DNA from: Actinomycetota bacterium
Lineage (GTDB): Bacteria > Actinomycetota > Aquicultoria > Aquicultorales > Aquicultoraceae
Direction of reading: 5' to 3'
Assembly: GCA_030018005.1 (NCBI GenBank)
Contig: JASEGT010000004.1
Span: 7,198 to 39,197 of the forward strand
DNA length: 32,000 nucleotides
The position numbers were made by a program, and so were the translations under genes. Shown here piece by piece: positions 12,797-29,795 of this stretch. How positions within the stretch are numbered: position 1 is the stretch's first letter; every line of letters begins with the position of its first letter. A model generated the notes under the pieces. It saw only the letters and a list, made by a program, of their open reading frames with translations. It made no database searches and had not been told where the DNA came from.

Positions 12797-13558
12797 TTAC
12801 TTATGCTCTATTAACTTCAGAAGCTCGTCATCCGGGCCATAGCGGACTACTTCGATGCGAGGTGCGCGCTGGGCGACTAGGTCACCAGTCATCACAGGTA
12901 GCTGGAACGGGAACAAGGCTGGGGTGTTCATAAGTAGGCCCATTGTACTTTTCCCCTCAGGTATGGCCTGTAATGCGCCCTCAAGAAGCAGCATAGCCAA
13001 ATCTATATCCCGAACAATGATCGGGTTGGCTTTCTCATAGCTTCCCTTGAATTCCGAATCTTTAAGGACACCCCAAGCAACAAATGATCGAATGACGTAT
13101 CGAGTATAGCGACTTATCGTTTCTCTATCACCATACTGTTCCTTGAGCCTACCGACAATCTGCTGATGGGTGACTTGTTCCTGGAGATTAAGCAAACGCC
13201 CTATCTGACGAGCAACGTTAAACCAAAACGGATATGCGGGCGAGATCATCGCCCAGTGCAACAACAAGCGGTTTTTAACTTTATTTGACCTCGCAATTTC
13301 AAGTGCTGCATCTCGTAGAGGGATAAGTGCTGCATCTGGACTAAACCACGCATTAGCCAAAGGGCCTATGGCCATAACGTAAGTTTTTTCGCCACGCTGA
13401 CCGCTGCCACCGCTTTGCTTTTTATCAGCAAGGTACTCCTTCAATTCCGACCGAACAGTTGTCGGATTCATACCTGCTAGGAGCATATCAAGCGTTTTTT
13501 CCATCCATTCAAGACGAATTACTTGTTTAATGCCAACCTTGTCGTGACGCTTGGCCAT
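12797..13558 (-). CDS. Hypothetical helical protein, last gene of the defence operon (possibly BrxA/DUF1819-like)
   Basis: 253-aa ORF. Its ATG (13558-13556) overlaps the pglZ TAA (TAATG). The sequence is helix-rich (LEWMEKTLDMLLAGMNPTTVRSELKEYL; LLLHWAMISPAYPFWFNVARQIGRLL). The functional label is only an impression of similarity in organisation to BrxA. Confidence 0.65.
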   Translation of the reverse strand: MAKRHDKVGIKQVIRLEWMEKTLDMLLAGMNPTTVRSELKEYLADKKQSGGSGQRGEKTYVMAIGPLANAWFSPDAALIPLRDAALEIARSNKVKNRLLLHWAMISPAYPFWFNVARQIGRLLNLQEQVTHQQIVGRLKEQYGDRETISRYTRYVIRSFVAWGVLKDSEFKGSYEKANPIIVRDIDLAMLLLEGALQAIPEGKSTMGLLMNTPALFPFQLPVMTGDLVAQRAPRIEVVRYGPDDELLKLIEHK

Positions 13559-15552
13559 TACCGCGCCCTCCGTTCGAATTTCACCAAGGGCACGATGACC
13601 TCTTCTAGGGATATGCCGCCATGGCCAACGGTCACTTCGTCTTCTTTGATAAAGGCATCACTCCCGTCAGCGACTAGCGGATAATAGCCTGATGGCAAGC
13701 CAACGGGCTCCCATTCCCTAGCAGACGTGAATGACTTGGCGACGGAGGCTCGAAGCTCTGCCGTTGGATATACTCGAGCCCGCTCACCGCGAGTCTCTGC
13801 TATAACGCCTTCTGACGGGCGACCAATCCCCCGGCACTCGATGTTGCCGTGGTCAGATGTCAGCCACACTAGACAATCATTCTTCAGAAGGTGCCCGATG
13901 AGTGTAGATAAGAATCCTTCTTTGCACCATTGCTTGATTTGGTTATGCATGCCGGCGGCCCCAAGCTGCATTCCATGCATAATTTTATCAACCTTGTCTA
14001 CAACCAAACCGATGGCCTTGGTCCGACCGGGATTTAGTGCGGCTTCGAGGGCGTCGGCAACGTCACCGTCTCCCAACCCACGTTGGTAACCGACGTCTAA
14101 CCGCGAAAGTCCGGCTCCTTCCCAGAATTGCCGCCAAAGATTGCCTTCGTTGTTTGTCGTATTGATCGACGAGGGATAGAAGATAGGCGGCTTCCCCGCG
14201 AATATCGCCTGTCTGGACACCGAAGTGAGCGTGGGAATCCAGGCAAAGGTTGCCGATTCCCGCATCACTAAGCTACGATCCTGTTCGCGCAGGATTTGAC
14301 GGATGGTCACCCACTGGTCTAGCGAGAGCCCGTCCACGACGATTAAGGCTACGCGAGCGCTTGGCTTGTCCTCAAGTTCTCGCACCAAACGACGCGGGAT
14401 ATGATGAAGCATGACCGGATTCGTTGGAGGGAGATTAATCAGGCTTGCATAATGGCCGTTCAGCCATTCCGCAAAAGCGTCATTGAGCGTGCCGCCGATT
14501 TGGCGGAAACGAGCCTGCTCGCTCTCCCGGCAACCGGCATGGACGAGAGCGCCTAGCTCAGCCCATTTCATGGCAAATGCCAGCCAATCTGAGTACCGCG
14601 CTTCTGCGGTCGGAACTGCCTTCTCAACGAGTTCGAGAAGGCGACTTATGCGGATATCGTCATCGGCAGCGCTTGTCTCGGCGAGTCCGCTTCGAATCCA
14701 GGAATGCGCCTCAACACTGATTTCAGGATGCCGAACAGGTTTGAGTTTCCCCTCGACAAACAGATTGTCGATGTAGACGCGGATATCTTCATGACCAAAA
14801 GGTAGTACATCCGGTCCGGGATATTTGAGCCCGTACTCGGATGTCTCCTCACATACCAAGTCATCAGAAGTGACACTACCCAGAAATACCGGCCATCTTT
14901 CCTGTAGGAATAAGAAAAATGCTTCCTCGTCGGGCACAATCTCTATCAATGGCCAGTTTTGAAAGTCGCCATGAGCATTAAGTACCTGTATCAATCGGGC
15001 ACACAGCAGCTCCGGGATGTCGAGCTTGTTGTAGTGGAGCCTGAGTAGTACCCGAAGCAGTTCAACCTCATTGCCGATGAGTTCCGCCGCAATGCCGAAC
15101 ACATGACGAAGAATGAAGTCTTTGGTGGCATTGTCACCCATGCGCTCCGGGGGAGATTTTTTCTGGGCATCGAACAGAGCATCCAGGAAACTGCGGTCCA
15201 GCTTCTCGACAACCGGATAGCTCAGGTTGGGGAAAAGGCCTCCGAGGTCGAACGCGAGCTTTCTGCCCGCCCTCAAAAGGTCGTAAGGCAAAGCGTCGAG
15301 TTCCGAGTCCCTCAAGCGGAGGATTACCACCAAATCGGTGTGTTCGCCCCGGTCCCAGATTGCCCGATACTTCGATTCATAAGCATAGCGAAACTCGACC
15401 GGATCATCGAATTCAATCAGGTCAAAACCGCGATTACGAAGCTCAAGTGCGAGCTTCTCCTCAGTCAACAAGGCGTCCGGGTCAGCCACCAGCGTCAGCT
15501 TGCTGACATGCGGCACAAAATCGTTCAGAATGGCATCCCGCCAGCTACTCAT
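13558..15552 (-). CDS. pglZ: PglZ-domain (alkaline-phosphatase superfamily) protein
   Basis: Hallmark PglZ motifs are present: ALIVVDGLSLDQW, IPTLTSVSRQAIFAG, VWLTSDHGN and VGHGGISLEEVIVPL. The track start (15567) is a TTG. The ATG at 15552 is preceded by GGAGG (15558-15562, 5-nt spacer), so I use 15552 (664 aa). It overlaps the helicase 3' end by 8 nt. Confidence 0.88.
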   Translation of the reverse strand: MSSWRDAILNDFVPHVSKLTLVADPDALLTEEKLALELRNRGFDLIEFDDPVEFRYAYESKYRAIWDRGEHTDLVVILRLRDSELDALPYDLLRAGRKLAFDLGGLFPNLSYPVVEKLDRSFLDALFDAQKKSPPERMGDNATKDFILRHVFGIAAELIGNEVELLRVLLRLHYNKLDIPELLCARLIQVLNAHGDFQNWPLIEIVPDEEAFFLFLQERWPVFLGSVTSDDLVCEETSEYGLKYPGPDVLPFGHEDIRVYIDNLFVEGKLKPVRHPEISVEAHSWIRSGLAETSAADDDIRISRLLELVEKAVPTAEARYSDWLAFAMKWAELGALVHAGCRESEQARFRQIGGTLNDAFAEWLNGHYASLINLPPTNPVMLHHIPRRLVRELEDKPSARVALIVVDGLSLDQWVTIRQILREQDRSLVMRESATFAWIPTLTSVSRQAIFAGKPPIFYPSSINTTNNEGNLWRQFWEGAGLSRLDVGYQRGLGDGDVADALEAALNPGRTKAIGLVVDKVDKIMHGMQLGAAGMHNQIKQWCKEGFLSTLIGHLLKNDCLVWLTSDHGNIECRGIGRPSEGVIAETRGERARVYPTAELRASVAKSFTSAREWEPVGLPSGYYPLVADGSDAFIKEDEVTVGHGGISLEEVIVPLVKFERRAR

Positions 15553-18433
15553 GACCGCCTCCTTCAACGATTCGCATCAGCAGAAGCGGCCTGATTTCCG
15601 GAACAATCTGCTTTGCCGTTTCCAACTCTTTCCGCCATTCGTCTTCTTCACTCGCGAGCCGGGCCGTCCGAAATTGGCGAACTTCGGGAAGGCCGACCCG
15701 TTCTATGGCTTTTCTCCGGGAACCAAATGCTATGACACCACGGTCCTCTTCGCGGCCGATGGATAACCGGTGTTCCTGCTGCAGCGCATCGAACAATTCC
15801 TGTCCGGCTTCTTCAGCAGCACCAAGAAGTCGTTCGTATGCGGTTACGGACTCGTCGTCGCCAAGGGACTGCGACACCTTCGGTTCTGCCGTCTGTAAGG
15901 CATCCCAGATGTGACGGGCCGTCGGCAGGAACACCTTGCCTGCGTCTGTCATAAAGACACTGACATATCGTCGTCTCACCAGCGGAATCCGTATGAGCCG
16001 GCTCTGCTTTTGCAGACCCGCCTGCAGGCGCACCTCAAAAAGTCCCCATAAGCCGGATAGGTTGGGTGGCAGACTTTTAACCGTCACACAAGGCAGCGGC
16101 TGCCCTGCGGCCATCTGCGGCAGATTAAGCGCCAGTCCCCTGATCCGGTTGTTCTCTAGGTTGAGCAGCTTTACGTCACTATACTGGTCAGCCTCCCGCG
16201 AGCTGAACACGCATTTCCGGTAATTCTCCCCATCGGGCCATGTGAGTTCCCACCAGGCTCGTTTGCGAAACGCCTGGCCGCCGTGAGAGTTGAGATACCC
16301 TACCGTCATCCGTTCAACCCAGTGAGGCAGCGGATGCGAACGCAGGCGTTCCGCCGCCTGGATATCCGGCTCATCTGAAAGTCCGTAAATAGCCGAGGAC
16401 TCTCGAACGGCTTTAATCTCATCTTGTATTTTAGCCATCGTGTAATCCACCGAGGCTTCGATAGTTTCCGGATTCATGAGCGCGGAAGTAAAAACTTCCT
16501 CGAACAGCTCCCCCGCCTGGGCTGAATCCAGCACATCGCCGGTTTTGTCGATGCCGAACTCCTCGAAGATGACCGAGAGTTTCTGTTCCAGCACCTCTCT
16601 GACCCGGAACTCGACCGAATCCTCGAACATGAAGTTGATCGCCAGCACCGTCTTGGCCTGGCCGATACGGTCGACGCGACCAATCCGCTGTTCTAGTCGC
16701 ATCGGGTTCCATGGGATGTCGTAGTTGATTACTACATGGCAAAATTGCAGGTTGAGGCCTTCGCCACCCGCATCGGTCGAAACCAGCACCCGGGCACTGT
16801 CCCTAAAGGCATCTTGTGCCCGTTTGCGCTCGCCCATGTCCATCGAGCCATTTAGATGGACAACGGAGATTCCGCGCGCCTCTAGAAATTCCCTTAGCAT
16901 CTCCTGGGTCGGAACGAATTCGGTAAAAATCAGAACCTTTAAATCCGATTCATTTTCATCGGCCTGCAGCTTATAAATCCATTCAATCAAGGCTTCTGCC
17001 TTGGCATCCGGACCGACCTGCTCGCACTTGAGCGCGGCATCCAGCAAGGTCTCAACATAACGGCCTTCGTTTTGCATGGCGGAAACTTGGGTCTTGAGAA
17101 GCTCATCTAGAAGCTCCTGGCCATCCATGTCGTAGAATTCGTCCAAACTCTCGGCACTGCTTTCCATCTCCTCCAGACGCCGGGCGGCCAGAAACTCATT
17201 TGTCTTTAGAGCTTCAAGTCGCCGTTCCAGGGTAGTCCGGATTGCCCGGGTGCTGGAAACAACCAGCCGCTGCATGAGAATCATCAGAAAACCGATGTGG
17301 CGCTTCTTTTCACGGAGCGCCTGGTTATAGCCCTCGCGCACGTAGTCGGTCACGGCTTCGTAAAGTAACTGCTGCAGGTGATGTCGGGACTCCCAGACTA
17401 CTCCAACCATTCGAGTTTGACGTGGCTTAAAGAGCGGCTTGCCATCGGCGTCGATAGCTTTGCGTTTCTCGGTGCGGATCACATAAGGAGCCACCCGCTC
17501 ACGAGAGACGCTTTCTATATCCGGGAACGCTGCTCCATCGAGCAGGTTTATCAGGCGATGGAAAGCGTCGGTTTTCCCCTGGTGCGGTGTTGCCGAGAGC
17601 AGCAGCACGTAGGGCGCGGCTTCCGCAAGCCCACGGCCGAGCTTGTAGCGGGCAACCTGGTCGGTACTGCCACCCAGACGATGGGCTTCATCGACGATGA
17701 CCAGGTCCCACCCGGCGGTCACCAGGTCTTCGAAGCGGATGCGGTTGTATTCCGCCACGCGTTCCGCCGACCAACCCCGACGCTTGTCCATCGGCTTAAC
17801 GGAATCGAGAGATACGATTACCTGGTTAAAAACAGACCACGGGGAACTGCGATAATCGCCCATCCCCGGAGCAAGGCGCTGCAGCGTACCGATATCATCG
17901 CCCAGCACAAGCTGGAAATCTTCGTTGAAATGGGTCTGCATTTCAGCCCCCCACTGAGTGGCAATCCCCTTGGGCGAAACAATGAGCGTCCGGCGAACCA
18001 AGCCTCGCAGCTTAAGCTCTCGCATGACCAGACCGGCTTCGATGGTTTTACCAAGGCCAACCTCATCGGCCAACAAGTATCGGACCCGGTCACCGGAGAT
18101 GGCGCGAGATAAAGCGTGAATCTGGTGAGGCAACGGAATAACGTTCGACTCCATGGGAGCTAAAAGCACATGCCCATCCGATGCGCTGGCGCCGCCCTCC
18201 AGTACTTCGGCAACCTTGGCTGCGGCTGCGATATATGAAATACGGTTGGATTCGATATCCGGCTGAAGATCGGAAGTTAATGGACGTAGCGATGATCGTG
18301 AAACCCGAACCACTGCGTCCTGGTTCGGTAGCCAGATACGGCAAACTGTTTGCCCCCATAGGGTTTCTTCGTCGATGACCTTGCAGGGGGAGTTGTGGGT
18401 TGTGCTGTATTGCCAAATGAACTCCATCACCAT
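15545..18433 (-). CDS. SNF2/RapA-like DEAH helicase (BrxHII-like) with N- and C-terminal extensions
   Basis: 962-aa ORF. Motif I is LLADEVGLGKTIEAG, Ia is LIVSPKGIATQW, II is VIVDEAHRLGG and III is LLLSATPHQG. The C-lobe reads VLVSTDAGGEGLNLQ ... WNPMRLEQRIGRVDRIGQ. About 330 aa follow the helicase core with no motif I recognise. Confidence 0.9.
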   Translation of the reverse strand: MVMEFIWQYSTTHNSPCKVIDEETLWGQTVCRIWLPNQDAVVRVSRSSLRPLTSDLQPDIESNRISYIAAAAKVAEVLEGGASASDGHVLLAPMESNVIPLPHQIHALSRAISGDRVRYLLADEVGLGKTIEAGLVMRELKLRGLVRRTLIVSPKGIATQWGAEMQTHFNEDFQLVLGDDIGTLQRLAPGMGDYRSSPWSVFNQVIVSLDSVKPMDKRRGWSAERVAEYNRIRFEDLVTAGWDLVIVDEAHRLGGSTDQVARYKLGRGLAEAAPYVLLLSATPHQGKTDAFHRLINLLDGAAFPDIESVSRERVAPYVIRTEKRKAIDADGKPLFKPRQTRMVGVVWESRHHLQQLLYEAVTDYVREGYNQALREKKRHIGFLMILMQRLVVSSTRAIRTTLERRLEALKTNEFLAARRLEEMESSAESLDEFYDMDGQELLDELLKTQVSAMQNEGRYVETLLDAALKCEQVGPDAKAEALIEWIYKLQADENESDLKVLIFTEFVPTQEMLREFLEARGISVVHLNGSMDMGERKRAQDAFRDSARVLVSTDAGGEGLNLQFCHVVINYDIPWNPMRLEQRIGRVDRIGQAKTVLAINFMFEDSVEFRVREVLEQKLSVIFEEFGIDKTGDVLDSAQAGELFEEVFTSALMNPETIEASVDYTMAKIQDEIKAVRESSAIYGLSDEPDIQAAERLRSHPLPHWVERMTVGYLNSHGGQAFRKRAWWELTWPDGENYRKCVFSSREADQYSDVKLLNLENNRIRGLALNLPQMAAGQPLPCVTVKSLPPNLSGLWGLFEVRLQAGLQKQSRLIRIPLVRRRYVSVFMTDAGKVFLPTARHIWDALQTAEPKVSQSLGDDESVTAYERLLGAAEEAGQELFDALQQEHRLSIGREEDRGVIAFGSRRKAIERVGLPEVRQFRTARLASEEDEWRKELETAKQIVPEIRPLLLMRIVEGGGHE

Positions 18434-19620
18434 AGCCGTTCTAATATAAAGCCCCGCGTGTCTACGAAAGCATCTATCGCGGCCCTATTTACATCAACGA
18501 TGTTCCCAAAATCTCTGTCCTGACCACGAACTCCAGCTCTGTGAGCAATACGAATCATTCCTTCAACGTCGTTCAAAAGCCTGTGCTGGTATTCAGCTGT
18601 TTCTTGAAATGATGTTTTACCTACAGTCAAGCATTGGTGTCGCAAGCAGCTCAAATAATGGCGAAAAGACTGCTGTTCAGAATAATCGGTAGTGGATGGT
18701 TGTGCACCGGAAAAAAGAATATCAGCATAATTAGAGCCATACTCAATAGGAGTCGCAATGGCGCCCAGCGGCCCCCGACGGAAAGCCATATCCAGGAATG
18801 GCAGTTTATACTCCGAGAGTGTCTGTGGACAGTAATACCATTTGACCCGTCTACTTACGCTATCCGAATCCGGCTTTTGAAATTTACCTGTACTGAATGA
18901 ACGAACATTTATCCAAGTTCCTGCGGCAATCGCATCCACGCCAGCACAAGCCAAACAAAGCATTTGGTGGTTTGAATAGCCAACAACAACTTCTTTCCCG
19001 TGCAACTTGAACCCAGCACATAGGTTAAGAAGGTTTGTAAGCCACAATGGATCGTCCGCTAAATACGAGCCATTGGGGTGCTCTGCGACAACATAATATC
19101 CATCTACGCCCCATTGTTCTGCAGCATTAAGCAATGTTTCGATCTGATCTTCAAAACGAACTATCTCTGCTGACAAGCATACGGTTGCCAACTTGGGCTT
19201 ATCCGTTATTAACTCGTGTGCTTCATTTATTATCGCGTCTTGAACAGCAAGCCAGTCTTCATCAATGCGTTGACAATAAAGACCTGGTAGTATGACTTTT
19301 TCAGTTTTTGCTAAGGTGTTGATCGAAATGATTTTCTCAAGAAGGGTTGTTAATGGCGGGCCAGAGAGAAACATCGCTGTGTTAAAGGTGTTTGGCCAAT
19401 AATCATGTTTAACCAGACCATGGTGGTCACCGCGAGGGTCGTAGAACTGAGGGTCGAGTAAGGTTGTACCTCCTCGCCCAGTGATATCATCTGATAAGCT
19501 GTCAATCTGTAATTCTGTCATATCGCGAGGACTTAGAATGACTGTGCCGCTTTTCCAGCTCTTAATAAGCTCACGGCAGTGATCCATCATTCCATGCCCA
19601 AACTGTAAGTGAAGTTTCAT
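18427..19620 (-). CDS. Hypothetical 397-aa protein (predicted alpha/beta, possibly barrel-like), family unknown
   Basis: ATG (19620-19618) overlaps the kinase TGA (ATGA). Its own TGA (18429-18427) overlaps the helicase start region. Short hydrophobic strands recur, each followed by helical sequence (TVILSP, TTLLDPQFY, KVILPGLY, ATVCLSAE, GYYVVAEH, EVVVGYSN, DAIAAGTW). I recognise no catalytic motif. Confidence 0.75.
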   Translation of the reverse strand: MKLHLQFGHGMMDHCRELIKSWKSGTVILSPRDMTELQIDSLSDDITGRGGTTLLDPQFYDPRGDHHGLVKHDYWPNTFNTAMFLSGPPLTTLLEKIISINTLAKTEKVILPGLYCQRIDEDWLAVQDAIINEAHELITDKPKLATVCLSAEIVRFEDQIETLLNAAEQWGVDGYYVVAEHPNGSYLADDPLWLTNLLNLCAGFKLHGKEVVVGYSNHQMLCLACAGVDAIAAGTWINVRSFSTGKFQKPDSDSVSRRVKWYYCPQTLSEYKLPFLDMAFRRGPLGAIATPIEYGSNYADILFSGAQPSTTDYSEQQSFRHYLSCLRHQCLTVGKTSFQETAEYQHRLLNDVEGMIRIAHRAGVRGQDRDFGNIVDVNRAAIDAFVDTRGFILERLW

Positions 19621-20480
19621 TTCATGCCCCTAATTATTTTTTCAGCTATCTGTTTAAACCACAATTTTGCCATTTTGGCAGAAGGAGGCCGCCTTGATGG
19701 ATATTTTTCCATTAGCAAACTAATAAACTGTGATAATTCGCCGGTTGTGTCCTCTTTAATATTTAAAATGTTAACTTGAAATGCCTCTGTACGCCTTAAA
19801 ATATCAAGGTAATCCCGTGCACCAGCTGCAAATGGATGGCTTCCAATAAGTACTTCATGTCCAACAACGCCTATCGAAAAAAGGTCAGCTCTCGCATCTA
19901 TCTTCTTCTTTATGTTGCGAAATTGTTCAGGCGCGGCATAGCCAGCTGTGTGCGGTCCAAAGTGAGCATTTGTAGCGGTAAGCGAAGGCTGGCGAAGGTC
20001 ACGCGCTATTCCAAAGTCCAATAACCAATATTTGCCATCATCCGAACAAAGAATATTTTCAGGTTTGATATCACGATGGACAACTTCTCGGGATTCAAGC
20101 GCTTCTATTGTTTCTAACAGGCTACCAAGCAGGCAGATTGCTTCTTCAGTCGTAAGAGTTTTCTGTTTATTCAGAACCTCACGCAAATCAACACCGCTTA
20201 TGTATTGTTCAATTATGTATAGATATTGAACTTCGCCTACTGTGCAATGCCCATGGCTGTAAATTTTTGGGACGTTCGGGAATGCGTATGATGACACGAT
20301 TTCTAGTTCCCTTTTGAAGCGGTCATCGGATCCATTTGGAAGCATGATTTTTACAACTACGACTCCATAACTCATATCCGTAGCAAGAAATACGGCTTTT
20401 TGACCACCAACCTTTATTTCTGATATCTCTGAAGCGTTTGGTAGTATTATTTTTACTATTTCGCAACTAGGCATTGCCAT
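19617..20480 (-). CDS. Hanks-type Ser/Thr protein kinase, catalytic core only
   Basis: 287-aa ORF. Motifs are VVVKIM (beta3 Lys), RELEIV (alphaC Glu), VVHRDIKPENIL, LLDFGIARD, GYAAPEQ and DLFSIGVV. GGAGAG lies upstream of the ATG at 20480. There are no additional domains. Confidence 0.9.
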   Translation of the reverse strand: MAMPSCEIVKIILPNASEISEIKVGGQKAVFLATDMSYGVVVVKIMLPNGSDDRFKRELEIVSSYAFPNVPKIYSHGHCTVGEVQYLYIIEQYISGVDLREVLNKQKTLTTEEAICLLGSLLETIEALESREVVHRDIKPENILCSDDGKYWLLDFGIARDLRQPSLTATNAHFGPHTAGYAAPEQFRNIKKKIDARADLFSIGVVGHEVLIGSHPFAAGARDYLDILRRTEAFQVNILNIKEDTTGELSQFISLLMEKYPSRRPPSAKMAKLWFKQIAEKIIRGMK

Positions 20481-20496
20481 GAGAACTCTCCATCCG

Positions 20497-21219
20497 TTAT
20501 GTATGCAAACGCCGACCTATCCACTCATTAAACAGCCAAGAAGCATAACTTGAGGGAAGCTGTCCATATTTTGATGGGCAGAGTTTTTTTATATTAGAAC
20601 CGCTTGGCATGGAATAGATGCCAACCCCTTTATCACGAGACTTCTCTAATATTTGTTTTTGCGGACTTGACATAGGCAAAAGGACATAGGATTCAGATGC
20701 AAACCATCTATTCATTTCCGCTTGTTGGAATGCAGATGCCCAATTTTTCATTTTTGCCTCAATGGCAACAATACTTCTAACCGCATATCTTGATTTTAGG
20801 GTTCTAGGTGTCCACTTTTTACCATGCCAACGGATCAAGCTTGACCCTAAAAGTCGTTCCAATGATCTGACCAGGCTCTTACTGTCAACCCCCAAGATTT
20901 TTTCTATGCTTTCGGAATCCGCCCCACCCACGAAATACAGATGGTGAAGAATTTTTAGGTCCACTAATGTTAAGTTTTTGCGCTCATTCGTCCATTGGTC
21001 GAGCACACGCGGGTTGTAGGCGACTATTACAATATCAGGAAAACCGGTATCTAACTGGGGTTCTGCAAACAATGCATAATGTCGTTTACGATTCTTGAGA
21101 GTAGGGAGTGTTTTATCTACAAACTCTGCAGTAAGTTCACTTTCTGGACCTGTTCGAGTTGAGCGAACAAATAAGTTTATAGAACGGTCAGCACATGTAA
21201 AATTTAAGACAGGAACCAT
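20497..21219 (-). CDS. Hypothetical protein with PD-(D/E)xK-like motifs and a wHTH-like insert
   Basis: The track ORF starts at a GTG (21261) inside the methylase gene. The ATG at 21219 (MVPVLNFTCADRS, 240 aa) is more plausible. Candidate nuclease motifs are FAEPQLDTGFPDIVIVAY and RSIVAIEAKMKNW. The intervening stretch LTLVDLKILHHLYFVGGADSESIEKILGVDSKSLVRSLERLL looks like a winged helix. Confidence 0.7.
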   Translation of the reverse strand: MVPVLNFTCADRSINLFVRSTRTGPESELTAEFVDKTLPTLKNRKRHYALFAEPQLDTGFPDIVIVAYNPRVLDQWTNERKNLTLVDLKILHHLYFVGGADSESIEKILGVDSKSLVRSLERLLGSSLIRWHGKKWTPRTLKSRYAVRSIVAIEAKMKNWASAFQQAEMNRWFASESYVLLPMSSPQKQILEKSRDKGVGIYSMPSGSNIKKLCPSKYGQLPSSYASWLFNEWIGRRLHT

Positions 21220-24041
21220 GTTATTCGCCCCCCCATTCTTGTTAGTGCTTGATCGTACCACATGAGCAGCTTTGGGTCTTCTTCGAGGACATTGTTGGGA
21301 ATTTTATCGGCCACAGCAATAATAGTTGCATAGTCGCGCTCCTGCCAGGCTTTCTTAAACCCGGCGCGGACAGCCTCAAGACGGAAGACTTTGAGTTTCT
21401 TTTTGGCTTGTTTGTATTCCTCGAACTCCTTGAGCAACACCTTTTCGCGAAGCTTCTCCAGGTCGCCCGCTTTGTTGGGATCAGGAACGTACCAGCGGCC
21501 TCGCGCCTTGGCTACCAGAGTCGTATCGTCTTTGGGCAGGTTGCGCAGTTCCTTCCAGTTGGTGGAAAGGTAGGCGTGGATCTGTTCCGGCACCGGTCCC
21601 TTGCCGTCGTAGCAGAGGAAGTTCTGCTCCAACAAAATGGAGAGTTCCAGCATCAGTTCGTTTTTGCTCCAGCCACCCAACTCGCGGATGAACTGGGGAT
21701 GAATCTCCTGAAAGGTGTGTGGCTTTTCTTTGAGTAGCTGACGAAGCCACTGGATCGCGGAGGCTTCGTCGGTAACAAACAGATCTAGTTGTCGAATACC
21801 AGACACCGTCATGCGTTTCTTGTCATACTCTACAGCTTGGTCTGAGAGGAAATACATATCGTCACGGACTGCAAATCGTTGTTCAAGACCCGCATAAAAG
21901 TCTGTAGAACTTAGGGGCACCATCACGCCACGGCGCACATGAAAAGCCACCATGCGATCGAACAAGAGATAGCTCATCCTCTCCACAATGGGTTCCACCT
22001 GGCCATCTTTTGCAACAAATACAGGCAATTGCTTTAAATGTGTGCGAACGAAATCCCAGGCGCCATCTTCAGTACCGGCTTCGAGTTTGAAGCGCTCCTC
22101 TAAACCGCCGTTTGGTTTGTAGACGGATATAACCAAATCCTGCTTGACCAACTTTTGAATTGATTGCTTGTATGTTTCTTGCTGTTTATCGAGCGTACGC
22201 ACATCGGCCACGACAAAGCCTGCCATCTCAAGTGCTTCTTGAATGGCAATCCAGACACTGTTCCGTGAATTGTGGAATTCAATTGTTACCCAACGCCCTG
22301 ACTTCAATACCCGGTATATCTCACGAAAAGCATCGGCCATTAAGGCCTGGTAGTCCTGAAGCGTTCGACTTCGTCCTTTGTCCATCACGGCTTCCGGCTC
22401 GCGCTGAGTCAGTATATTCAACCAGGCTTCCCAGAAGAAATTAAGTTCGGAGTAATGTAGGTTGTTACCAAAAGGCGGGTCTATAAAGATATAATCGAGA
22501 CTCATGTCGGGCAGCGAACTAAGGTTAGTTGTTGACTGGCACGTAATGGCCGATTGTCCAGATACTCCTGGTAGCACAAGTTTACATAACCTCTTCAGCT
22601 TATTCGTCATAGAATAGGCTGGTGACACTTCTGAAATTAGGGAACCAACAAAAAGAGTTCCAGAGAAGTAGCGATTGACCTGTGATCCTCCGACACGACC
22701 AAATTGCACAGGCTGATAGCGATTCATTTTTGTAAAACCAAGATTGTTTCCTTGTACAAAGAAACGGACAAAGGCATTGGGACGGGCGTGTAACTTTGCC
22801 CAGAGTCTTGAATAAACAATCAAAGCGCGCCGAAAATAAAAATGGTGAAGATGTGTAATGCCCTTCAGGTGGTATCCATCCTTTCCTTTGCGCTCACCTT
22901 CAAGCATTTCCCAAGCTGGGAACCAATCAGCAATAGTTGTTTCGTCGATGCGCCTCAGAACTTCCAAGTCATGCTCGTCAGGTTTCTTTTCATAACGTTT
23001 GCCATCAAGCTGATAACTAATGAGAACAGGGGAATAGCGCACTAATTGATGTGTTTTTTGAAGCGGTTTATCATAAAAGGACTGCCATAACCGTTGCATC
23101 GCTTTTTTGATGAGATCAGCCCCACAATTAGGGCAGAAAAAATTGTCCATTACCTTGAATGTTTCTTTCTGGACCGCAGCATCGAAGTAAACAACTTCCT
23201 TGCCACAATGCGGACACGCAAAAACCTCGCTCCAAACTGTGTAGTTGATCTTCCCGATCCGTCCATCGGAGTGCTTAGTCTCATACATCCAACCACATTC
23301 TTCTTCAACTTCTTTTAGAATGCGCTTAGCTTCCTTTTCAAACGTCGCCACGTCCACCGGCGTGTTGTAGTTATGGGCAATGAATGTAGCAGCCGGTGAT
23401 AAGTCATTCAAAACCGCCCGACGCACGCCAAGCTTAGAGAAGGCCACCCAAGTCTTCTTGCCATCCTCATCCAGCTCTTCGCGTAAGACAGTGTCGTCTG
23501 GCTTCACCTGGTAACCAAGCGACATGACTACCTCCCGGTCGCCGCACAGCTGAGCAGCCACGCCCGTCATGCCGGTTCCACAGAAACCATCGAACACGAT
23601 ATCCCCCGGCTCTGTGTAATGGAGGATGTAGCGCATGATGGCTTTGTGCGGCACCTTGGTGTGGTAGGAGTGCGCGTTGTATATGGGGTCGTTCTTGCCC
23701 TCGCTCACATCTGCCGCAAAGGGCTCGCGGTGGTAGACATATCCCTCCGGTTTGGCCAGCTTTTGCGCTTCCCACTCCTGGATAAAATCGGTAATCCAGG
23801 GGTTCGGGCATGCAGTATAATACGGCGGATCGCTCAAGGCGAGGATGGCCTCATCGGTGCCGATAGGGAATCCCTCGATTTCACGAAATGCAGGGTCTTG
23901 CAGCTTCTCGCGAAGCTTTTCGGTAAAATGCTTGCGACGCTCCTCGTCATTGTCGAAGGTCAGCCCCAGGCAGGTCACCGGACCTTTGCTTACTTGCTCC
24001 GATTGGCCGTCTCCAAAATCCAGGGGGTCTTGTTGATTCAT
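21204..24041 (-). CDS. DNA methyltransferase (N6-adenine/N4-cytosine type, motif order I...TRD...IV) with a Zn-ribbon; the PglX-equivalent of the locus
   Basis: 945-aa ORF. AdoMet motif I is DIVFDGFCGTGMTGVAAQ (about 23563-23595). Catalytic motif IV is YIFIDPPFGNN (22467-22481). The Zn-ribbon is CPHCGKEVVYFD...FFCPNCGADL (23124-23215). An N-terminal LSDPPYYTACPNPW motif is also present. The ATG at 24041 overlaps the upstream TGA (ATGA). Confidence 0.85.
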   Translation of the reverse strand: MNQQDPLDFGDGQSEQVSKGPVTCLGLTFDNDEERRKHFTEKLREKLQDPAFREIEGFPIGTDEAILALSDPPYYTACPNPWITDFIQEWEAQKLAKPEGYVYHREPFAADVSEGKNDPIYNAHSYHTKVPHKAIMRYILHYTEPGDIVFDGFCGTGMTGVAAQLCGDREVVMSLGYQVKPDDTVLREELDEDGKKTWVAFSKLGVRRAVLNDLSPAATFIAHNYNTPVDVATFEKEAKRILKEVEEECGWMYETKHSDGRIGKINYTVWSEVFACPHCGKEVVYFDAAVQKETFKVMDNFFCPNCGADLIKKAMQRLWQSFYDKPLQKTHQLVRYSPVLISYQLDGKRYEKKPDEHDLEVLRRIDETTIADWFPAWEMLEGERKGKDGYHLKGITHLHHFYFRRALIVYSRLWAKLHARPNAFVRFFVQGNNLGFTKMNRYQPVQFGRVGGSQVNRYFSGTLFVGSLISEVSPAYSMTNKLKRLCKLVLPGVSGQSAITCQSTTNLSSLPDMSLDYIFIDPPFGNNLHYSELNFFWEAWLNILTQREPEAVMDKGRSRTLQDYQALMADAFREIYRVLKSGRWVTIEFHNSRNSVWIAIQEALEMAGFVVADVRTLDKQQETYKQSIQKLVKQDLVISVYKPNGGLEERFKLEAGTEDGAWDFVRTHLKQLPVFVAKDGQVEPIVERMSYLLFDRMVAFHVRRGVMVPLSSTDFYAGLEQRFAVRDDMYFLSDQAVEYDKKRMTVSGIRQLDLFVTDEASAIQWLRQLLKEKPHTFQEIHPQFIRELGGWSKNELMLELSILLEQNFLCYDGKGPVPEQIHAYLSTNWKELRNLPKDDTTLVAKARGRWYVPDPNKAGDLEKLREKVLLKEFEEYKQAKKKLKVFRLEAVRAGFKKAWQERDYATIIAVADKIPNNVLEEDPKLLMWYDQALTRMGGRITWFLS

Positions 24042-25549
24042 ACCCGCTCCTTGTTGTGTGCTATTTGCGACTGCAGGGCTCGGCCTTTTTCTGTTAGTTG
24101 ATACTTCTGTTTGCTGCTTTGCGGTTTATCGGGAATGGTCATTTCAATCAGGCCTTCCTCAATCAATGGACTGAGAACTTGGTGCCGGAACTTGGTTCTA
24201 TCGGATCGCTGGGCTATTGCCATAAGGTCCACTAGCGCGGTCTCTTCGCGGCACTTTTCGAGGATTTCGACTTGGTGCCGACTTAGTGCCAACTTGGTGC
24301 CGACTTGTTCAAACACTTCCCTGGTGACTTCTTGCGGAACCGGACGCCACAGCGTCTGCACAAACTGTCCGCCGTCCTGGCGAAAATCAGGTGTGGGCAA
24401 ATCGGCCTCGGCACAGCGAGCGATCATATCTAAGGTTCCCGTGCCTGCCTTCTCAATATATCCGGCGAGAAACAAGGGTCCGGCAAGCAAGGGGTTGTGT
24501 GGGATAGATGCATGCGGTACCCGCAATGACTCCAGCGTCAAGGTGGACGGGAGCTGACCGGGGTTCCAAACTTCGAGCCGGTCGGCGAAGAGCATGACCT
24601 GCACACTGGCGTTGCTGGTGTAATCGCGATGAGCGATGGCGTTGACGATGGCTTCGCCTACGGCTTCGCGCGGCAATTCGTATTCGACCGGGGCTTGCGG
24701 CCCCTGCTCCCGGGTACCGACCGAGCGGGCTATTTTAGACATCACGAAATCCAACGCCTGGTCTACCAATTCGAATACAGTGCCTTTATATATCTGATAT
24801 GATGGAATCGGCTTGCGTACCTCGGTGCCATGGAAATGCAAGCATTTGACTTCTGAGGTTACCAAAAATCGTTGCGGCAACTTGCCAAAGAGCAGGACTG
24901 CCGCATGGCTGGGGTATTTCCCCGCAAGAAGATCGAGGTGCGCTAAGGCCTTGCGCATTGTTGTTCCGGGGCCTAACGGATAGCCGCGATTGCTTTGGGC
25001 ACGCGCCAAGAATTCATCCAGCTTCTCAGTGGAGAGATCTTCAAGTGTCGCGCGCGGGCAAACGGATGCGTCAAACGGCCCTGCCTGAATGACCCCAACC
25101 CGCTCCAGGTGCTCGACCAAGCTGGCATAAAGCGCAGACGTCAGCTCGGGTAAGTCGGTAAAACGGCGGCGTATAAGTTGTTTGCCTGCCTTGCGAACAA
25201 GCTCGCGCATCTTGGGATGGCGGGCGTCGTCGTTTTGGCCCTTTATAAAAATTAGGCGCGGTTTGCCCGCGGCCGTAGCTCTATCAAATTCGCGCTCGGT
25301 GGGCGACATACCTTCCGCATCCTCATACCCATAGTCCTGGCCGAACAAGCCGACATAGATGTCGCAGCGATCCACCTCATCAAGATATACGGAATCAGCC
25401 CGGCGGTCGGATGCGGGTAGGTCCTCGAACAGGAAGACTTCGAAAAAGCGGCGCAATAATGGGTCGCCGTGAAGGTACGCCTTCAGTTCTCGGCGTTCTT
25501 CGGCAAACTCTTTCTGGGCGCTGCTGATAAAGATACGGAGCCTGTTCAC
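24038..25549 (-). CDS. DUF4062-like N-terminal domain fused to a Schlafen/AlbA_2-type domain, an HATPase_c_4-like region and a C-terminal wHTH
   Basis: 503-aa ORF with a GTG start (25549-25547), 5 nt after the upstream TAA. The N-terminus RIFISSAQKEFAEERRELKAYL...DRCDIYVGLFGQDYGY matches my recollection of DUF4062. The middle and C-terminal parts (GKPRLIFIKG; REAVGEAIVNAIAHRDYTSNASVQVMLFADRLEVWNPGQLP; LSRHQVEILEKC...IEEGLIEMT) match proteins often annotated as a 'RecG-like' putative DNA-binding protein. Confidence 0.75.
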   Translation of the reverse strand: MNRLRIFISSAQKEFAEERRELKAYLHGDPLLRRFFEVFLFEDLPASDRRADSVYLDEVDRCDIYVGLFGQDYGYEDAEGMSPTEREFDRATAAGKPRLIFIKGQNDDARHPKMRELVRKAGKQLIRRRFTDLPELTSALYASLVEHLERVGVIQAGPFDASVCPRATLEDLSTEKLDEFLARAQSNRGYPLGPGTTMRKALAHLDLLAGKYPSHAAVLLFGKLPQRFLVTSEVKCLHFHGTEVRKPIPSYQIYKGTVFELVDQALDFVMSKIARSVGTREQGPQAPVEYELPREAVGEAIVNAIAHRDYTSNASVQVMLFADRLEVWNPGQLPSTLTLESLRVPHASIPHNPLLAGPLFLAGYIEKAGTGTLDMIARCAEADLPTPDFRQDGGQFVQTLWRPVPQEVTREVFEQVGTKLALSRHQVEILEKCREETALVDLMAIAQRSDRTKFRHQVLSPLIEEGLIEMTIPDKPQSSKQKYQLTEKGRALQSQIAHNKERV

Positions 25550-28500: not shown

Positions 28501-29283
28501 CTTTAGTAAACGCTCGGAGACGACAAATTTCACGTCGTTGCGGGCAATCAGAACCTGCTCGAAACGGTCTTTTACCCGACGAATGCTGTCGGATACAAAG
28601 GCAAAGCGCGGGCTATCGAAGATGGCTTCCTGGACGCCGGCGATAAAGCGGAATCGGAGGTCTTTGCAGACCTCGCCGACTTCGCGAAGAAAGTTCAGGT
28701 CTAGAATTAGTTCCTGGTCTTTACGGGAGCGAAGATAGTCAAGAAGTTCATCAACGACGAGGAGCAGGCCATGATCCGGGTAAGCCTGATGAAAAGCGGT
28801 CATCATCTCCTCGAAGGCCCGTTTATGGCTGGAGATTGTGTCCGCTTCAGGAAACACATACATCACGCCGAGTTTGTCGAGGTTTTCTTCCAGTTCGGCG
28901 ACGAGGATATCGCGCAGCGACATTGTCGTCGCACCGATTTCGGTACGGATTACCTTGAACCGTCCGGCAATCTTCTTGGCGGCATCGGCGACGCCGGTAT
29001 GATTCAGGACATCTAGCAGAGAAGCGTCTTCGGCGATACTGGAGACCACCGACATCAAGTGAGATTTACCAGTTCCGTAGTTGCCGACAACCAGCATTCC
29101 CTTATTATCGACCGGTTCGTCGAACTGCAATTGCGGAACGACAAGCCCGATTAGCCGCTCAGCCATTTCTTCGGAAATGACGTAAGTGCTCACCAAATGA
29201 TGCGCAGCGCCGGACTTAGCCGCGTCGCGCAGTTGAACCACCGTTTCAATTGGGTCGAACTGGATAAGATCGCCGTATTTCAT
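25555..29283 (-). CDS. Large P-loop NTPase, BrxC/PglY-class
   Basis: 1242-aa ORF. Walker A is [15 protein letters not shown] and Walker B is [15 protein letters not shown] long helical C-terminal part contains a single CPHC knuckle (25969-25980). Its size, motifs and position next to a methylase and PglZ match the BREX ATPase role. The ATG at 29283 overlaps the upstream TGA (ATGA). Confidence 0.75.
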
Positions 29284-29795
29284 GCTTGTCCTGCCTCTCT
29301 CGTATCCTTTATAGAATCGGCCTCTACTGCGCTGTCCATCCGCACCAGCAATGTGTCGCTCAGACCATAGTTTCGATACTCTGGATGACCTGCTTCGGCA
29401 TATATGAGCTTCCCTTTCTCCGCTAAACCATTCCAGGAAGCAACCACACAGCGATTTCTTGAAACACTCTGCAAAAGCCTCAAGGGGTCTTGCTTCAACT
29501 CTTTGTCGAACAAAATTTCAAGATTGTCGAGCACTACGGTCGACCCCTCTGCCCCCGCAATTTGGTCGAGAATTTCCGGCAGCCGAAGGGCGCGTTGTTT
29601 TGAAGTTAATTCAAGTAGGCGTGCCGAAAGCTCTAAATTGATATTGATGACCGGAACGCCGAGATCGTCAGCCACGGCACGAAGGGCTACCGTCTTGCCT
29701 GTGCCGGTTTCTCCAACCAACAAAACAAGCCTGTAATACAGCCCTTCCGCAGCCTGAAGTGCACGTTTAACTTGGTCTCGAATCGGCACAGTCAT
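29280..29795 (-). CDS. Small P-loop ATPase, first gene of the operon (BrxF-like)
   Basis: 171-aa ORF. Walker A is [14 protein letters not shown] and the Walker-B-like motif is [16 protein letters not shown] lies upstream of the ATG at 29795. The BrxF label rests on size, position and my recollection of that family. Confidence 0.7.

Follow-up and report, generated by a model that had tools for sequence, protein, structure and literature searches.

Stk2 of staphylococci is a Hanks kinase that reportedly triggers abortive infection by phosphorylating proteins of the cell. PD-T4-6, as modelled in PADLOC, is a defence system made of a single gene, the product of which is a Ser/Thr kinase resembling those of eukaryotes. 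In PglW, a component of methylation-based BREX, a restriction-endonuclease-fold domain is joined to a Hanks-type Ser/Thr kinase and to winged-helix DNA-binding modules (PMC12839542), and MAD6 is a Hanks kinase essential in MADS, an eight-gene, BREX-like, methylation-associated defence operon (10.1101/2023.03.30.534895). Variants of DndF, in a restriction system, are wHTH-NERD-pseudokinase-kinase fusions (PMC10853773). Autonomous defence systems can also be nested between BREX core genes, as is the case for PARIS-like OLD-ABC pairs, Gabija, Schlafen-HATPase_c_4 and GmrSD/BrxU (PMC12839542). Here we describe three genes, A, B and C, that lie together within a BREX operon and compare them with these systems.

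A three-gene cassette within a type 3 BREX operon

The window, meaning the whole 32-kb stretch of DNA that was analysed, carries a type 3 BREX set complete in one operon (BrxF, BrxC, PglXI, BrxHII, PglZ and BrxA; PADLOC, E from 0 to 9e-60). The trio, in the order A-kinase-C on the minus strand (18427-21219), sits between PglXI and BrxHII, so that the operon reads BrxF-BrxC-(503 aa)-PglXI-trio-BrxHII-PglZ-BrxA. Its features are listed below.

29280-29795, minus strand: BrxF, type 3 BREX core (PADLOC, 8.8e-60)
25555-29283, minus strand: BrxC, type 3 BREX core (PADLOC, E=0)
24038-25549, minus strand: second non-core gene, 503 aa (Pfam DUF4062, HATPase_c_4 and Fic-like_C winged helix)
21204-24041, minus strand: PglXI methyltransferase, upstream border of the slot (PADLOC PglXI, E=0; Pfam N6_N4_Mtase)
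20497-21219, minus strand: gene A, 240 aa, putative PD-(D/E)xK nuclease core with an inserted winged-helix DNA-binding domain
19617-20480, minus strand: gene B, 287 aa, predicted minimal Hanks-type Ser/Thr kinase, catalytic domain only
18427-19620, minus strand: gene C, 397 aa, predicted orphan (beta/alpha)8 TIM barrel with a C-terminal three-helix bundle
15545-18433, minus strand: BrxHII SNF2 helicase, downstream border of the slot (PADLOC BrxHI/BrxHII, E=0)
13558-15567, minus strand: PglZ, type 3 BREX core (PADLOC, E=0)
12797-13558, minus strand: BrxA, type 3 BREX core (PADLOC, 1.6e-97)
about 18440 to about 21360, no strand: low-G+C tract, marker of the acquired segment (fine-scale G+C profile)

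The 503-aa protein shares 28-34% identity with Schlafen-HATPase_c_4 proteins from other BREX-3 loci.

At each junction of the trio, the stop codon of one gene overlaps the start codon of the next or lies very close to it. The open reading frame of gene A was called as 20497-21261 with a GTG start (254 aa), but the alignment of homologues, together with an identical protein at NCBI, places its start at the ATG at 21219, giving 240 aa and a 16-nt overlap with the end of pglXI. The kinase ATG is preceded by a 16-nt spacer containing GGAG, the kinase gene and gene C overlap in ATGA, and the end of gene C overlaps the BrxHII start by 7 nt. The trio also has the lowest G+C content anywhere in the 32 kb, at 42.9%, compared with 53.5% in the remainder of the window. 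All non-overlapping windows of 2793 nt give a fraction of 0.535 +/- 0.015, from which the trio, at 0.429, lies about 7 SD away, and GC3 is 33-41% in its genes against 47-64% in the BREX genes. The low-G+C tract is bounded by the junction of gene C and BrxHII on one side, and on the other it ends about 150 nt inside the 3' end of pglXI. The initial annotation, made from the letters of the sequence, had already described three coupled genes between a methylase and a helicase, lying in an AT-rich block. Both descriptions stand: the reading frames and their overlapping or nearly abutting junctions were found, its hand counts of G+C per 60 nt (20, 21, 24, 32 and 36) are exactly right, and the compositional break is real when examined by windowed G+C.

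Predicted folds and conserved residues

Protein A is labelled a MarR-type regulator at NCBI. It matches no family in Pfam, NCBIfam, PADLOC or PHROGs, and the Pfam NERD model gives no match even at E<=10. Its AF2 model (pLDDT 92.8) has the elements a1(25-42)-b1(47-52)-b2(63-68)-(wHTH 70-138)-b3(147-155)-a2(160-172)-b4(176-181), an order that fits an alpha-beta-beta-beta-alpha-beta core interrupted by a winged helix after its second strand and before its third. An acidic residue on helix 1, an Asp at the beginning of strand 2 and E154-x-K156 on strand 3 agree with the PD-(D/E)xK pattern. Residues E26, E53, D62, E154, K156 and Q166 are kept in 80-82 of 82 homologues and also in a haloarchaeal homologue of only 22% identity. 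Protein A is thus predicted to be a PD-(D/E)xK nuclease, an assignment that rests on motifs and strand order, as the fold search recovered the winged helix only; this insert matches MarR/Lrp/Z-alpha winged helices weakly.

Protein B is, on sequence evidence, a Hanks-type Ser/Thr kinase. Pfam Pkinase matches residues 27-269 of 287 with 118.8 bits (cut-off 31.7), the Pfam search found no second domain, and the beta3 Lys, alphaC Glu, HRD, catalytic Asn, DFG and APE residues are all present. Among the trio kinases, K44, E58, H135-R136-D137, K139, N142, D155-F156-G157, S166, T168, T178 and E185 are kept in 78-82 of 82. The PADLOC PD-T4-6 model PDLC04042 matches at 2.6e-46 (157 bits, profile positions 17-265 of 292), as do more than 20 further PD-T4-6 models, and PADLOC mad6 matches at 1.7e-43. 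The generic Stk1 model gives 151 bits. Two NCBIfam models stay far below their cut-offs: antiphage_MADS6 gives 111.6 bits against 460, and BREX_PglW (NF033442) gives 53.4 bits (E=9.6e-15) against 990, covering the kinase domain only. With catalytic residues kept in at least 93% of 82 trios, both kinase and nuclease look active. Each of the motifs singled out in the initial annotation is present, GFPDIVIV and IVAIEAKMKNW in protein A and VVVKIM, HRDIKPENIL, DFGIARD and AAPEQ in protein B, and its description of a nuclease-like protein with a wHTH-like insert, followed by a bare kinase core with intact key residues, agrees with the AF2 model and the Pfam result.

Protein C has no sequence match in Pfam, NCBIfam, PADLOC, PHROGs or the PDB. 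Its AF2 model (pLDDT 93.2, pTM 0.92) places a barrel at about residues 1-300 and a three-helix bundle at 315-396; eight strand-helix units and fold-level Foldseek matches indicate a (beta/alpha)8 TIM barrel. Foldseek returned generic TIM barrels only, many with probability 1.0, at E>=1e-4 and TM 0.27-0.43, the best TM-scores being scattered over unrelated TIM families, and there was no TGT among the top 50. Assignment to a named TIM family (TGT/DpdA, endonuclease IV/xylose-isomerase-like, glycosidases, PEP/pyruvate enzymes) was rejected, as Pfam, NCBIfam, PDB sequences and Foldseek gave no family-level match. The initial annotation could not place this protein, and it does match no named family; what the model adds is a fold. 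Protein C is the most conserved of the trio, with 62 columns at least 93% conserved over 82 sequences and clustered just past the barrel strands. At the mouth of the barrel, the invariant residues make up a set like that of an enzyme; what protein C does is a guess, as its structural neighbours are uninformative. The family comprises 942 clusters at 50% identity.

Distribution, mobility and the pglXI-brxHII junction

A GTDB scan limited to two peptide patterns matched 169 of 185,579 species genomes. Two collections were scanned, with the best 80 loci of each scan retained, and simple methods served for the neighbour gene calls and the trio tree. Among the best 80 GTDB loci, the order A-kinase-C on one strand was found in all 75 that had enough upstream DNA, with and without BREX, and a search for a conserved fourth gene among the trio loci found none. 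Co-occurrence is strict, and the proteins co-evolve, their pairwise distances being correlated at r=0.84-0.88. The trio ranges over more than 20 bacterial phyla, archaea, plasmids and integrative elements. BREX genes are absent near about 70 of the best 80 GTDB loci, and trios without BREX occur in Desulfuromusa, Zixibacteria, Desulfosarcina widdelii, Thioalkalivibrio, Bacillus plasmids and one haloarchaeal plasmid. The trio is AT-richer than its flanks at 57 of 62 loci, and near-identical copies are found in eight Flavobacteriaceae, across genera, within an element with PRTRC genes. Its neighbours include type I HsdM (8 loci), TniQ, integrases, GmrSD, AbiEii and Schlafen. Many standalone trios adjoin ordinary genes (tRNA synthetases, Tex, transporters), and many copies are chromosomal.

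The junction occupied by the trio in the window is a variable one. In 53 related metagenomic BREX-3 loci the gap between PglXI and BrxHII runs from -66 to 4423 nt, and 45 of them (85%) hold at least 1 kb of co-oriented cargo there. This cargo includes Gabija, Thoeris, IetAS, Ppl, HEC-03, PARIS-like, PDC-S19 and Schlafen-HATPase_c_4. As all of the cargo that can be named consists of known or candidate defence systems, the unnamed occupants of this junction, among them the trio, are promising places to look for new systems. The closest relatives of the window's BrxHII and PglZ (80-84% and 72-74% identity, respectively) lack the trio, BREX-3 loci that do carry it have a BrxHII only 52-73% identical to that of the window, and at one locus (L016) it is flanked by a repeat, 125 nt long, of pglXI 3'-end sequence. 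The trio is therefore cargo, not part of the BREX core. The eight BREX-embedded copies all lie at the same junction and, in the trio tree, all fall within a single clade, so that a functional link of some kind to BREX-3 is conceivable.

Interpretation and comparison with known systems

We consider the trio to be a self-contained mobile cassette, carried as cargo in the BREX-3 slot, and most likely (with a probability of about 0.65) a candidate kinase-centred anti-phage or anti-plasmid system that has yet to be named. Defence is argued from position and neighbours: a mobile unit in a slot that usually holds other defence systems is probably itself one. A closer bond with the host operon would make the trio a BREX-3 accessory that phosphorylates PglXI, BrxHII or PglZ, or supplies the missing nuclease, as an analogue of PglW in type 2 BREX or MAD6 in MADS. 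The start/stop overlaps on both sides, the one junction and one clade of the embedded copies, the pairing of nuclease and kinase that mirrors the N-terminal half of PglW (PMC12839542) and the retention of the trio at a locus (L092) where brxHII is deleted are all consistent with this. It is nevertheless unlikely, since solo copies are interleaved with the embedded ones in that clade and make up all the others, unrelated autonomous systems (Gabija, Thoeris, IetAS, Ppl) use the same junction, none of the best 80 BREX-3 loci nearest the window's BrxHII has the trio, and the phylogenies of trio and backbone are decoupled. The initial annotation had proposed two origins for the cassette. One of them, PglW function split into separate polypeptides, draws on the presence of a nuclease-fold protein next to a Hanks kinase inside a BREX operon and on the weak NCBIfam PglW match (9.6e-15), but it is contradicted on several counts and very improbable: the 53 bits of that match are exceeded by the Stk1, MAD6 and PD-T4-6 models, protein A lacks a NERD match, the trio has a single kinase domain and no pseudokinase, C-terminal winged-helix triad or sensor region, PglW has nothing that corresponds to the TIM barrel, most loci are free of BREX, and the host operon is type 3 rather than type 2. 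The other, an independent kinase-based system nested in the operon, is supported, together with its horizontal acquisition: the three genes strictly co-occur, copies also stand alone, the block is AT-rich, its phylogeny does not follow that of the BREX backbone, and the slot is of a kind that takes up such systems.

Carriage on plasmids and an integrative element, proximity to TniQ and integrases, and the AT-rich nature of the cargo would also suit an addiction or regulatory module of mobile elements, in which a kinase or nuclease toxin is restrained by a partner for maintenance or exclusion; kinase-based toxin-antitoxin systems are known (HipA; KKP, PMC11341870). Such a module is quite unlikely, as the trio consists of three large conserved proteins with no small labile antitoxin and many chromosomal copies have no mobile-element genes within 10 kb. 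Its slot-mates and neighbours are defence systems, yet the two functions are compatible. TIM barrels and Hanks kinases are frequent in metabolism and signalling, and protein A bears its regulator label, but an ordinary housekeeping signalling or metabolic operon lying here by chance is scarcely credible. It is already contradicted by the patchy distribution (169 of 185,579 species genomes in the scan with two peptide patterns), the near-identical copies across Flavobacteriaceae genera and an AT-richness relative to the hosts, besides the conserved catalytic residues of the nuclease and the location inside a defence operon; no match of the trio to housekeeping families was found.

If the trio is a defence system, its proteins would be co-produced from the coupled genes and assembled as a complex. 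The kinase itself lacks a sensor domain, so a partner would have to switch it. Protein A, with its winged helix and putative PD-(D/E)xK core, is a candidate for both foreign-DNA sensor and DNA-cutting effector, and protein C could add a second catalytic activity or act as a regulator that senses a ligand. Infection would lead to phosphorylation of the kinase itself, its partners, or host or phage proteins; nuclease or enzyme activity would then be released and the invader stopped, possibly at the cost of the cell. A PP2C or metallophosphoesterase gene, adjacent in some genomes, could reset the switch. A bolder and more tentative reading, possible though speculative, is of a new immune pathway conserved in Bacteria and Archaea, in which a sensor-less Hanks kinase relays a signal between a nuclease that reads DNA and an orphan enzyme of TIM-barrel fold, the latter with new effector chemistry acting on nucleic acids, nucleotides or a metabolite. 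Were this true, it would amount to immunity gated by phosphorylation and involving an enzyme family so far absent from the databases. Protection against phages, if borne out, would make the trio a further kinase-centred system and a small three-protein model for Hanks kinase switching in immunity, a question that also arises for PglW, MAD6 and PD-T4-6.

According to the initial annotation, neither a PglW split in this way nor a nested kinase-based system of this sort was known to have been described. The searches agree: the trio has no model in Pfam (2025 release), NCBIfam (June 2026), PADLOC (2023) or PHROGs, and the searched literature yielded no description. Two large families, those of proteins A and C (the barrel alone with some 940 clusters at 50% identity), are thus without a model in these collections. 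PD-T4-6 is the best database match of the trio kinase. Annotation built on such models could therefore give its gene the label PD-T4-6, a system of one gene, and overlook two obligate partners. The match is to a generic catalytic domain (157 bits versus 119 for Pfam Pkinase), and whereas PD-T4-6 is a single gene, the trio kinase is flanked by A and C at every one of the 75 informative loci among the best 80 from GTDB. Stk2 provides a model for a kinase as a defence switch, but it is larger, senses through a region within the same single protein and, unlike the trio kinase, has no nuclease or TIM-barrel partners.

PglW likewise pairs a nuclease fold, a Hanks kinase and winged helices in a BREX operon. 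It is, however, a single chain of 1400-1600 aa that unites a NERD nuclease, a kinase along with a pseudokinase, a sensor region and, at the C-terminal end, three winged helices, whereas the trio comprises three proteins, with a putative non-NERD nuclease bearing a winged helix in its core, a single kinase and a predicted TIM barrel, and mostly occurs without BREX, having no obligate association with type 2. MAD6, of about 610-660 aa, has extra domains, in contrast to the 287-aa catalytic domain of the trio kinase. Identification of the trio as MADS was rejected on the MADS6 score (111.6 bits, cut-off 460); proteins A and C match no PADLOC mad model and the other MAD proteins are unrepresented. 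The DndF variants, too, combine a winged helix, a nuclease fold and a kinase, but there these modules are fused to the DndF P-loop core and act with DndG and DndH, the nuclease is NERD and there is no TIM barrel. The systems embedded in BREX belong to protein families unrelated to the trio, which is not among the embedded effectors named in the text of the survey (PMC12839542), but in BREX-3 relatives they occupy exactly the junction at which the trio is found.

Gene order and composition of the cassette

The minus-strand operon running from 29.8 to 12.8 kb encodes BrxF, BrxC, PglXI, BrxHII, PglZ and BrxA and is a complete type 3 BREX system according to the PADLOC models. Three further genes, A, B and C (the trio, or cassette), lie between PglXI and BrxHII:

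21204-24041, minus strand: PglXI, upstream border of the trio
20497-21219, minus strand: gene A, 240 aa counted from ATG
19617-20480, minus strand: gene B, kinase, 287 aa
18427-19620, minus strand: gene C, 397 aa
15545-18433, minus strand: BrxHII, downstream border of the trio

An ATG was chosen as the start of gene A; a GTG 14 codons upstream is unsupported by homologues. The trio genes are tightly coupled to one another and to both BREX neighbours. The start of gene A and the stop of PglXI share 16 nt, the kinase gene is preceded by a 16-nt spacer containing GGAG, genes B and C meet in an ATGA overlap, and the BrxHII ATG overlaps the stop of gene C by 7 nt. The initial annotation had described three coupled genes between a methylase and a helicase; the reading frames and overlaps bear this out, and the motifs it quoted are all found in the three proteins. 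A scan of 18-22 kb for promoters and terminators gave no site above shuffled expectation.

The AT-rich break with the operon neighbours, previously noted from five hand counts of G+C that proved exact on recount, is real: the trio has 42.9% G+C against 53.5 +/- 1.5% for same-size non-overlapping windows, and is the lowest-G+C stretch of the entire window. GC3 is 33-41% in its genes versus 47-64% in the BREX genes. One end of the low-GC tract falls exactly at the junction of gene C with BrxHII and the other about 150 nt inside the 3' end of pglXI. A search of the window for repeats around the trio found short, chance-level matches only.

Other features of the window deserve brief mention. The middle of pglXI (about 22000-23400) has a G+C of 0.44-0.47 versus 0.52-0.54 at the gene ends, and may be an exchanged target-recognition region. 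A second non-core gene (24038-25549, minus strand), between BrxC and PglXI, encodes DUF4062, HATPase_c_4 and a Fic-like_C winged helix; its product is a distant relative of the Schlafen-HATPase_c_4 proteins that BREX loci commonly contain, and this type of gene occupies the pglXI-brxHII junction in other loci. The DnaE (DNA polymerase III alpha) gene (4917-9818, minus strand) is interrupted by an intein bearing a LAGLIDADG homing-endonuclease domain.

The three proteins

Protein B consists solely of a Hanks-type catalytic domain: Pkinase covers residues 27-269 of 287 (118.8 bits), in agreement with its earlier description as a bare catalytic core. K44, E58, HRD, N142, DFG and the APE glutamate are kept in 78-82 of 82 sequences, as are three Ser/Thr residues of the activation loop. 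The best matches are generic (PADLOC PD-T4-6, 2.6e-46, and mad6, 1.7e-43; NCBIfam Stk1, 7e-44) and all fall far under the curated whole-protein cut-offs.

Proteins A and C have no meaningful family in Pfam (to E=10), NCBIfam (to E=1), PHROGs or PADLOC. The AlphaFold2 model of A, built on the homologue alignment (pLDDT 92.8), has the helix-strand-strand-strand-helix-strand topology of PD-(D/E)xK nucleases. The winged-helix-like insert recognized in the initial annotation appears in the model as a domain of five helices and two strands (residues 70-138) between core strands 2 and 3. E26, E53, D62, E154, K156 and Q166 occupy the PD-(D/E)xK catalytic positions and are kept in 80-82 of 82 homologues; the same residues are found in a haloarchaeal homologue of 22% identity. 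Fold and sequence searches with A picked up the winged helix only (weak matches to MarR, Lrp, Csa3 and Z-alpha types), and so it is from motifs and topology that A is predicted to be a PD-(D/E)xK nuclease with an inserted winged helix. When the PDB was searched by sequence with three profiles (C, A, and the nuclease core of A minus the winged helix), nothing beyond weak winged-helix matches or noise came back. The NCBI name of P0121, a protein identical to the product of 20497-21219, is 'MarR family winged helix-turn-helix transcriptional regulator', which overlooks the conserved nuclease core; the public record places its metagenome-assembled contig in Actinomycetota.

Protein C is modelled (AlphaFold2 on the homologue alignment, pLDDT 93.2) as a (beta/alpha)8 TIM barrel (approximately residues 1-300) with a three-helix bundle at its C-terminal end. 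Structure comparison places it next to generic TIM barrels of many unrelated families (E>=1e-4, TM<=0.43). A DNA-modifying barrel of the TGT/DpdA kind was considered and rejected, there being no TGT in the top 50 structural hits and no sequence signal. The active sites of TIM barrels are located just after the barrel strands, and it is mostly here that the conserved columns of C (62 columns at least 93% conserved across 82 sequences) are found: SPRD after strand 2, DPQ after strand 3, GY..HQ after strand 7 and G..N.R after strand 8. The barrel mouth is conserved in an enzyme-like manner. Among the three proteins, conservation is highest in C and lowest in A. Homologues of C form 1395 clusters at 90% identity and 942 at 50%, all unnamed and almost all 390-420 aa long.

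Distribution and the BREX cargo slot

A scan of GTDB (one genome per species, two peptide patterns only) found relatives in 169 species, and the best 80 loci were analysed. These represent over 20 phyla. Among the carriers in culture are Desulfosarcina widdelii (PP31), Thioalkalivibrio denitrificans (ALJD), several Flavobacteriaceae (Flagellimonas pelagia for one) and Microcoleus, and a Thermoplasmatales archaeon is also present. The order A-kinase-C on one strand holds in all 75 of these loci with enough upstream DNA, and pairwise distances among the three proteins correlate (r=0.84-0.88). Clustering of all genes neighbouring the trio revealed no fourth conserved gene. Divergent trios are carried by Bacillus plasmids (31-32% identity) and a Natribaculum plasmid (25%); a Bacillus example is the B. 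mycoides SIN2.2 plasmid NZ_CP128131.1 (65,234-67,922). On the Natribaculum breve plasmid (L089:9201-9890), the gene directly after C encodes a metallophosphoesterase, and there is a type IIG-like methylase on the upstream side; in three bacterial GTDB loci the trio adjoins PP2C phosphatases. Both kinds of enzyme might serve to reset the kinase. Some copies look degraded, with the kinase split by about 1.1 kb (L027) or truncated (L085), gene A split (L039), or several BREX and trio genes in fragments (L020), which could reflect decay or assembly errors.

The cassette is autonomous and mobile, and is located in places reserved for defence genes. BREX genes are absent around about 70 of the 80 best GTDB loci, and in 57 of 62 loci the A+T content of the trio exceeds that of its flanks (median difference 4.9 points). 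Eight Flavobacteriaceae (L053-L060; Flagellimonas, Maribacter, Cytophaga, Euzebyella, Croceitalea and Allomuricauda) hold near-identical copies, indicating recent horizontal spread, within a common element that also carries PRTRC-system genes, a 1671-aa methylase-helicase, an AbiEi-like gene and integrases. Neighbours elsewhere include type I HsdM (8 loci), tyrosine recombinases (7 loci), TniQ, GmrSD, AbiEii, Schlafen-HATPase_c_4 and a PRTase-CE/ORC-CDC6-like pair. Some trios also have ordinary housekeeping genes beside them. In a Thermoplasmatales contig (L006:596-6371), a DNA methylase, a PRTase-CE/ORC-CDC6-like pair and a ThyX-type thymidylate synthase precede the trio, the end of the ThyX-type gene overlapping gene A. 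Among phage collections, INPHARED gave no match and IMG/VR two of 2.9 million contigs.

The trio lies inside type 3 BREX in eight loci including the window, each time after PglXI. A metagenome search with the window's BrxHII found it in none of the 80 best BREX-3 loci (L093-L172). In the 53 of these with PglXI visible, the gap between PglXI and BrxHII measures -66 to 4423 nt: nothing lies in six gaps, less than 1 kb in two, and co-oriented genes spanning 1-4.4 kb in the other 45. The cargo comprises Gabija (GajA, GajB), Thoeris (ThsA-Macro, ThsB-TIR), IetAS, Ppl, HEC-03, PARIS-like AriA/AriB, PDC-S19 (DUF3644), Schlafen-HATPase_c_4 and an NsnB-like ATPase, together with unnamed genes including those for a 500-aa protein and a 349-aa partner of the NsnB-like ATPase. 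Because the named cargo consists of known or candidate defence systems, the junction is a defence-cargo slot, of which the trio is one rare occupant. The accessible text of a 2026 BREX diversity survey describes effectors, nucleases among them, that lie within BREX loci, and does not mention the trio.

Backbone and cargo have separate histories. The nearest relatives of the window's BrxHII (80-84%) and PglZ (72-74%) hold different cargo, BrxHII of trio-bearing loci is 52-73% identical to that of the window, and in one such locus (L090) the trio is 70-74% identical, BrxHII 58% and BrxA 38%. In another (L016), a 125-nt direct repeat of the pglXI 3' end (147-271 and 3098-3222, 2951 nt apart, 83% identical) surrounds the trio and looks like the scar of a cassette insertion via recombination in the conserved end of pglXI. 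The PglXI C-terminus is among its best-conserved parts (75-88% identity). This conservation, the repeat and the reach of the low-GC tract into pglXI suggest recombination in this flank as the route by which the cassette passes from one BREX-3 operon to another. A further trio-bearing type 3 BREX locus (L092:8401-11400) has lost brxHII, a 38-residue N-terminal remnant being left before PglZ.

Interpretation and possible working

With a probability of about 0.65, we favour reading the trio as an independent defence cassette that is mobile and lodged in the cargo slot of BREX-3. The initial annotation had offered such a kinase-based system as one of two readings, and the autonomy and mobility of the trio and the other defence cargo of the slot support it. 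Its other reading, PglW split into separate polypeptides, is rejected as very improbable: kinase B scores 53 bits on the PglW model against a cut-off of 990, every comparison with PglW that was run came out negative, and most trios stand apart from BREX genes. The trio might instead be a functional BREX-3 accessory, as the tight coupling to BREX genes and the grouping of all eight embedded copies in a single clade would suggest; this is unlikely, however, as standalone copies are interleaved within that clade (all other clades being standalone), the slot holds other occupants, and the trio and backbone phylogenies are decoupled. An addiction module of mobile elements, which would be compatible with a defence role, is a rather doubtful alternative, and a housekeeping operon, contradicted by distribution and composition, hardly credible. 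CapK/CapS, a kinase-repressor pair upstream of immune operons (PMC13373217), was rejected as an identity because CapK is an anti-sigma-factor-type kinase and not a Hanks kinase.

The trio genes are co-inherited and translationally coupled, and A and B have intact catalytic sites of known type. In a mobile defence cassette of this kind the kinase would act as the switch and, as it has no regulatory domain, would be controlled in trans. Protein A, with its DNA-binding insert, would be a natural reader and cutter of foreign DNA, and C could be a second effector or a ligand-sensing regulator. A phosphorylation switch would accord with the phosphatases found next to the trio in a small number of genomes. 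Our confidence in this specific order of events is much lower than in the defence cassette itself.

The trio is best regarded as a widespread candidate defence system that has yet to be named and that includes two protein families missing from the family databases; it is not described in the accessible portions of the literature searched, including the 2026 BREX survey, a Dnd reappraisal, DefensePredictor and the MADS preprint. As a candidate it falls among the kinase-plus-nuclease defence modules, a known kind. In related methylation-based systems, a kinase is essential or integral, namely PglW in BREX-2 and MAD6 in MADS (PMC12839542; 10.1101/2023.03.30.534895).
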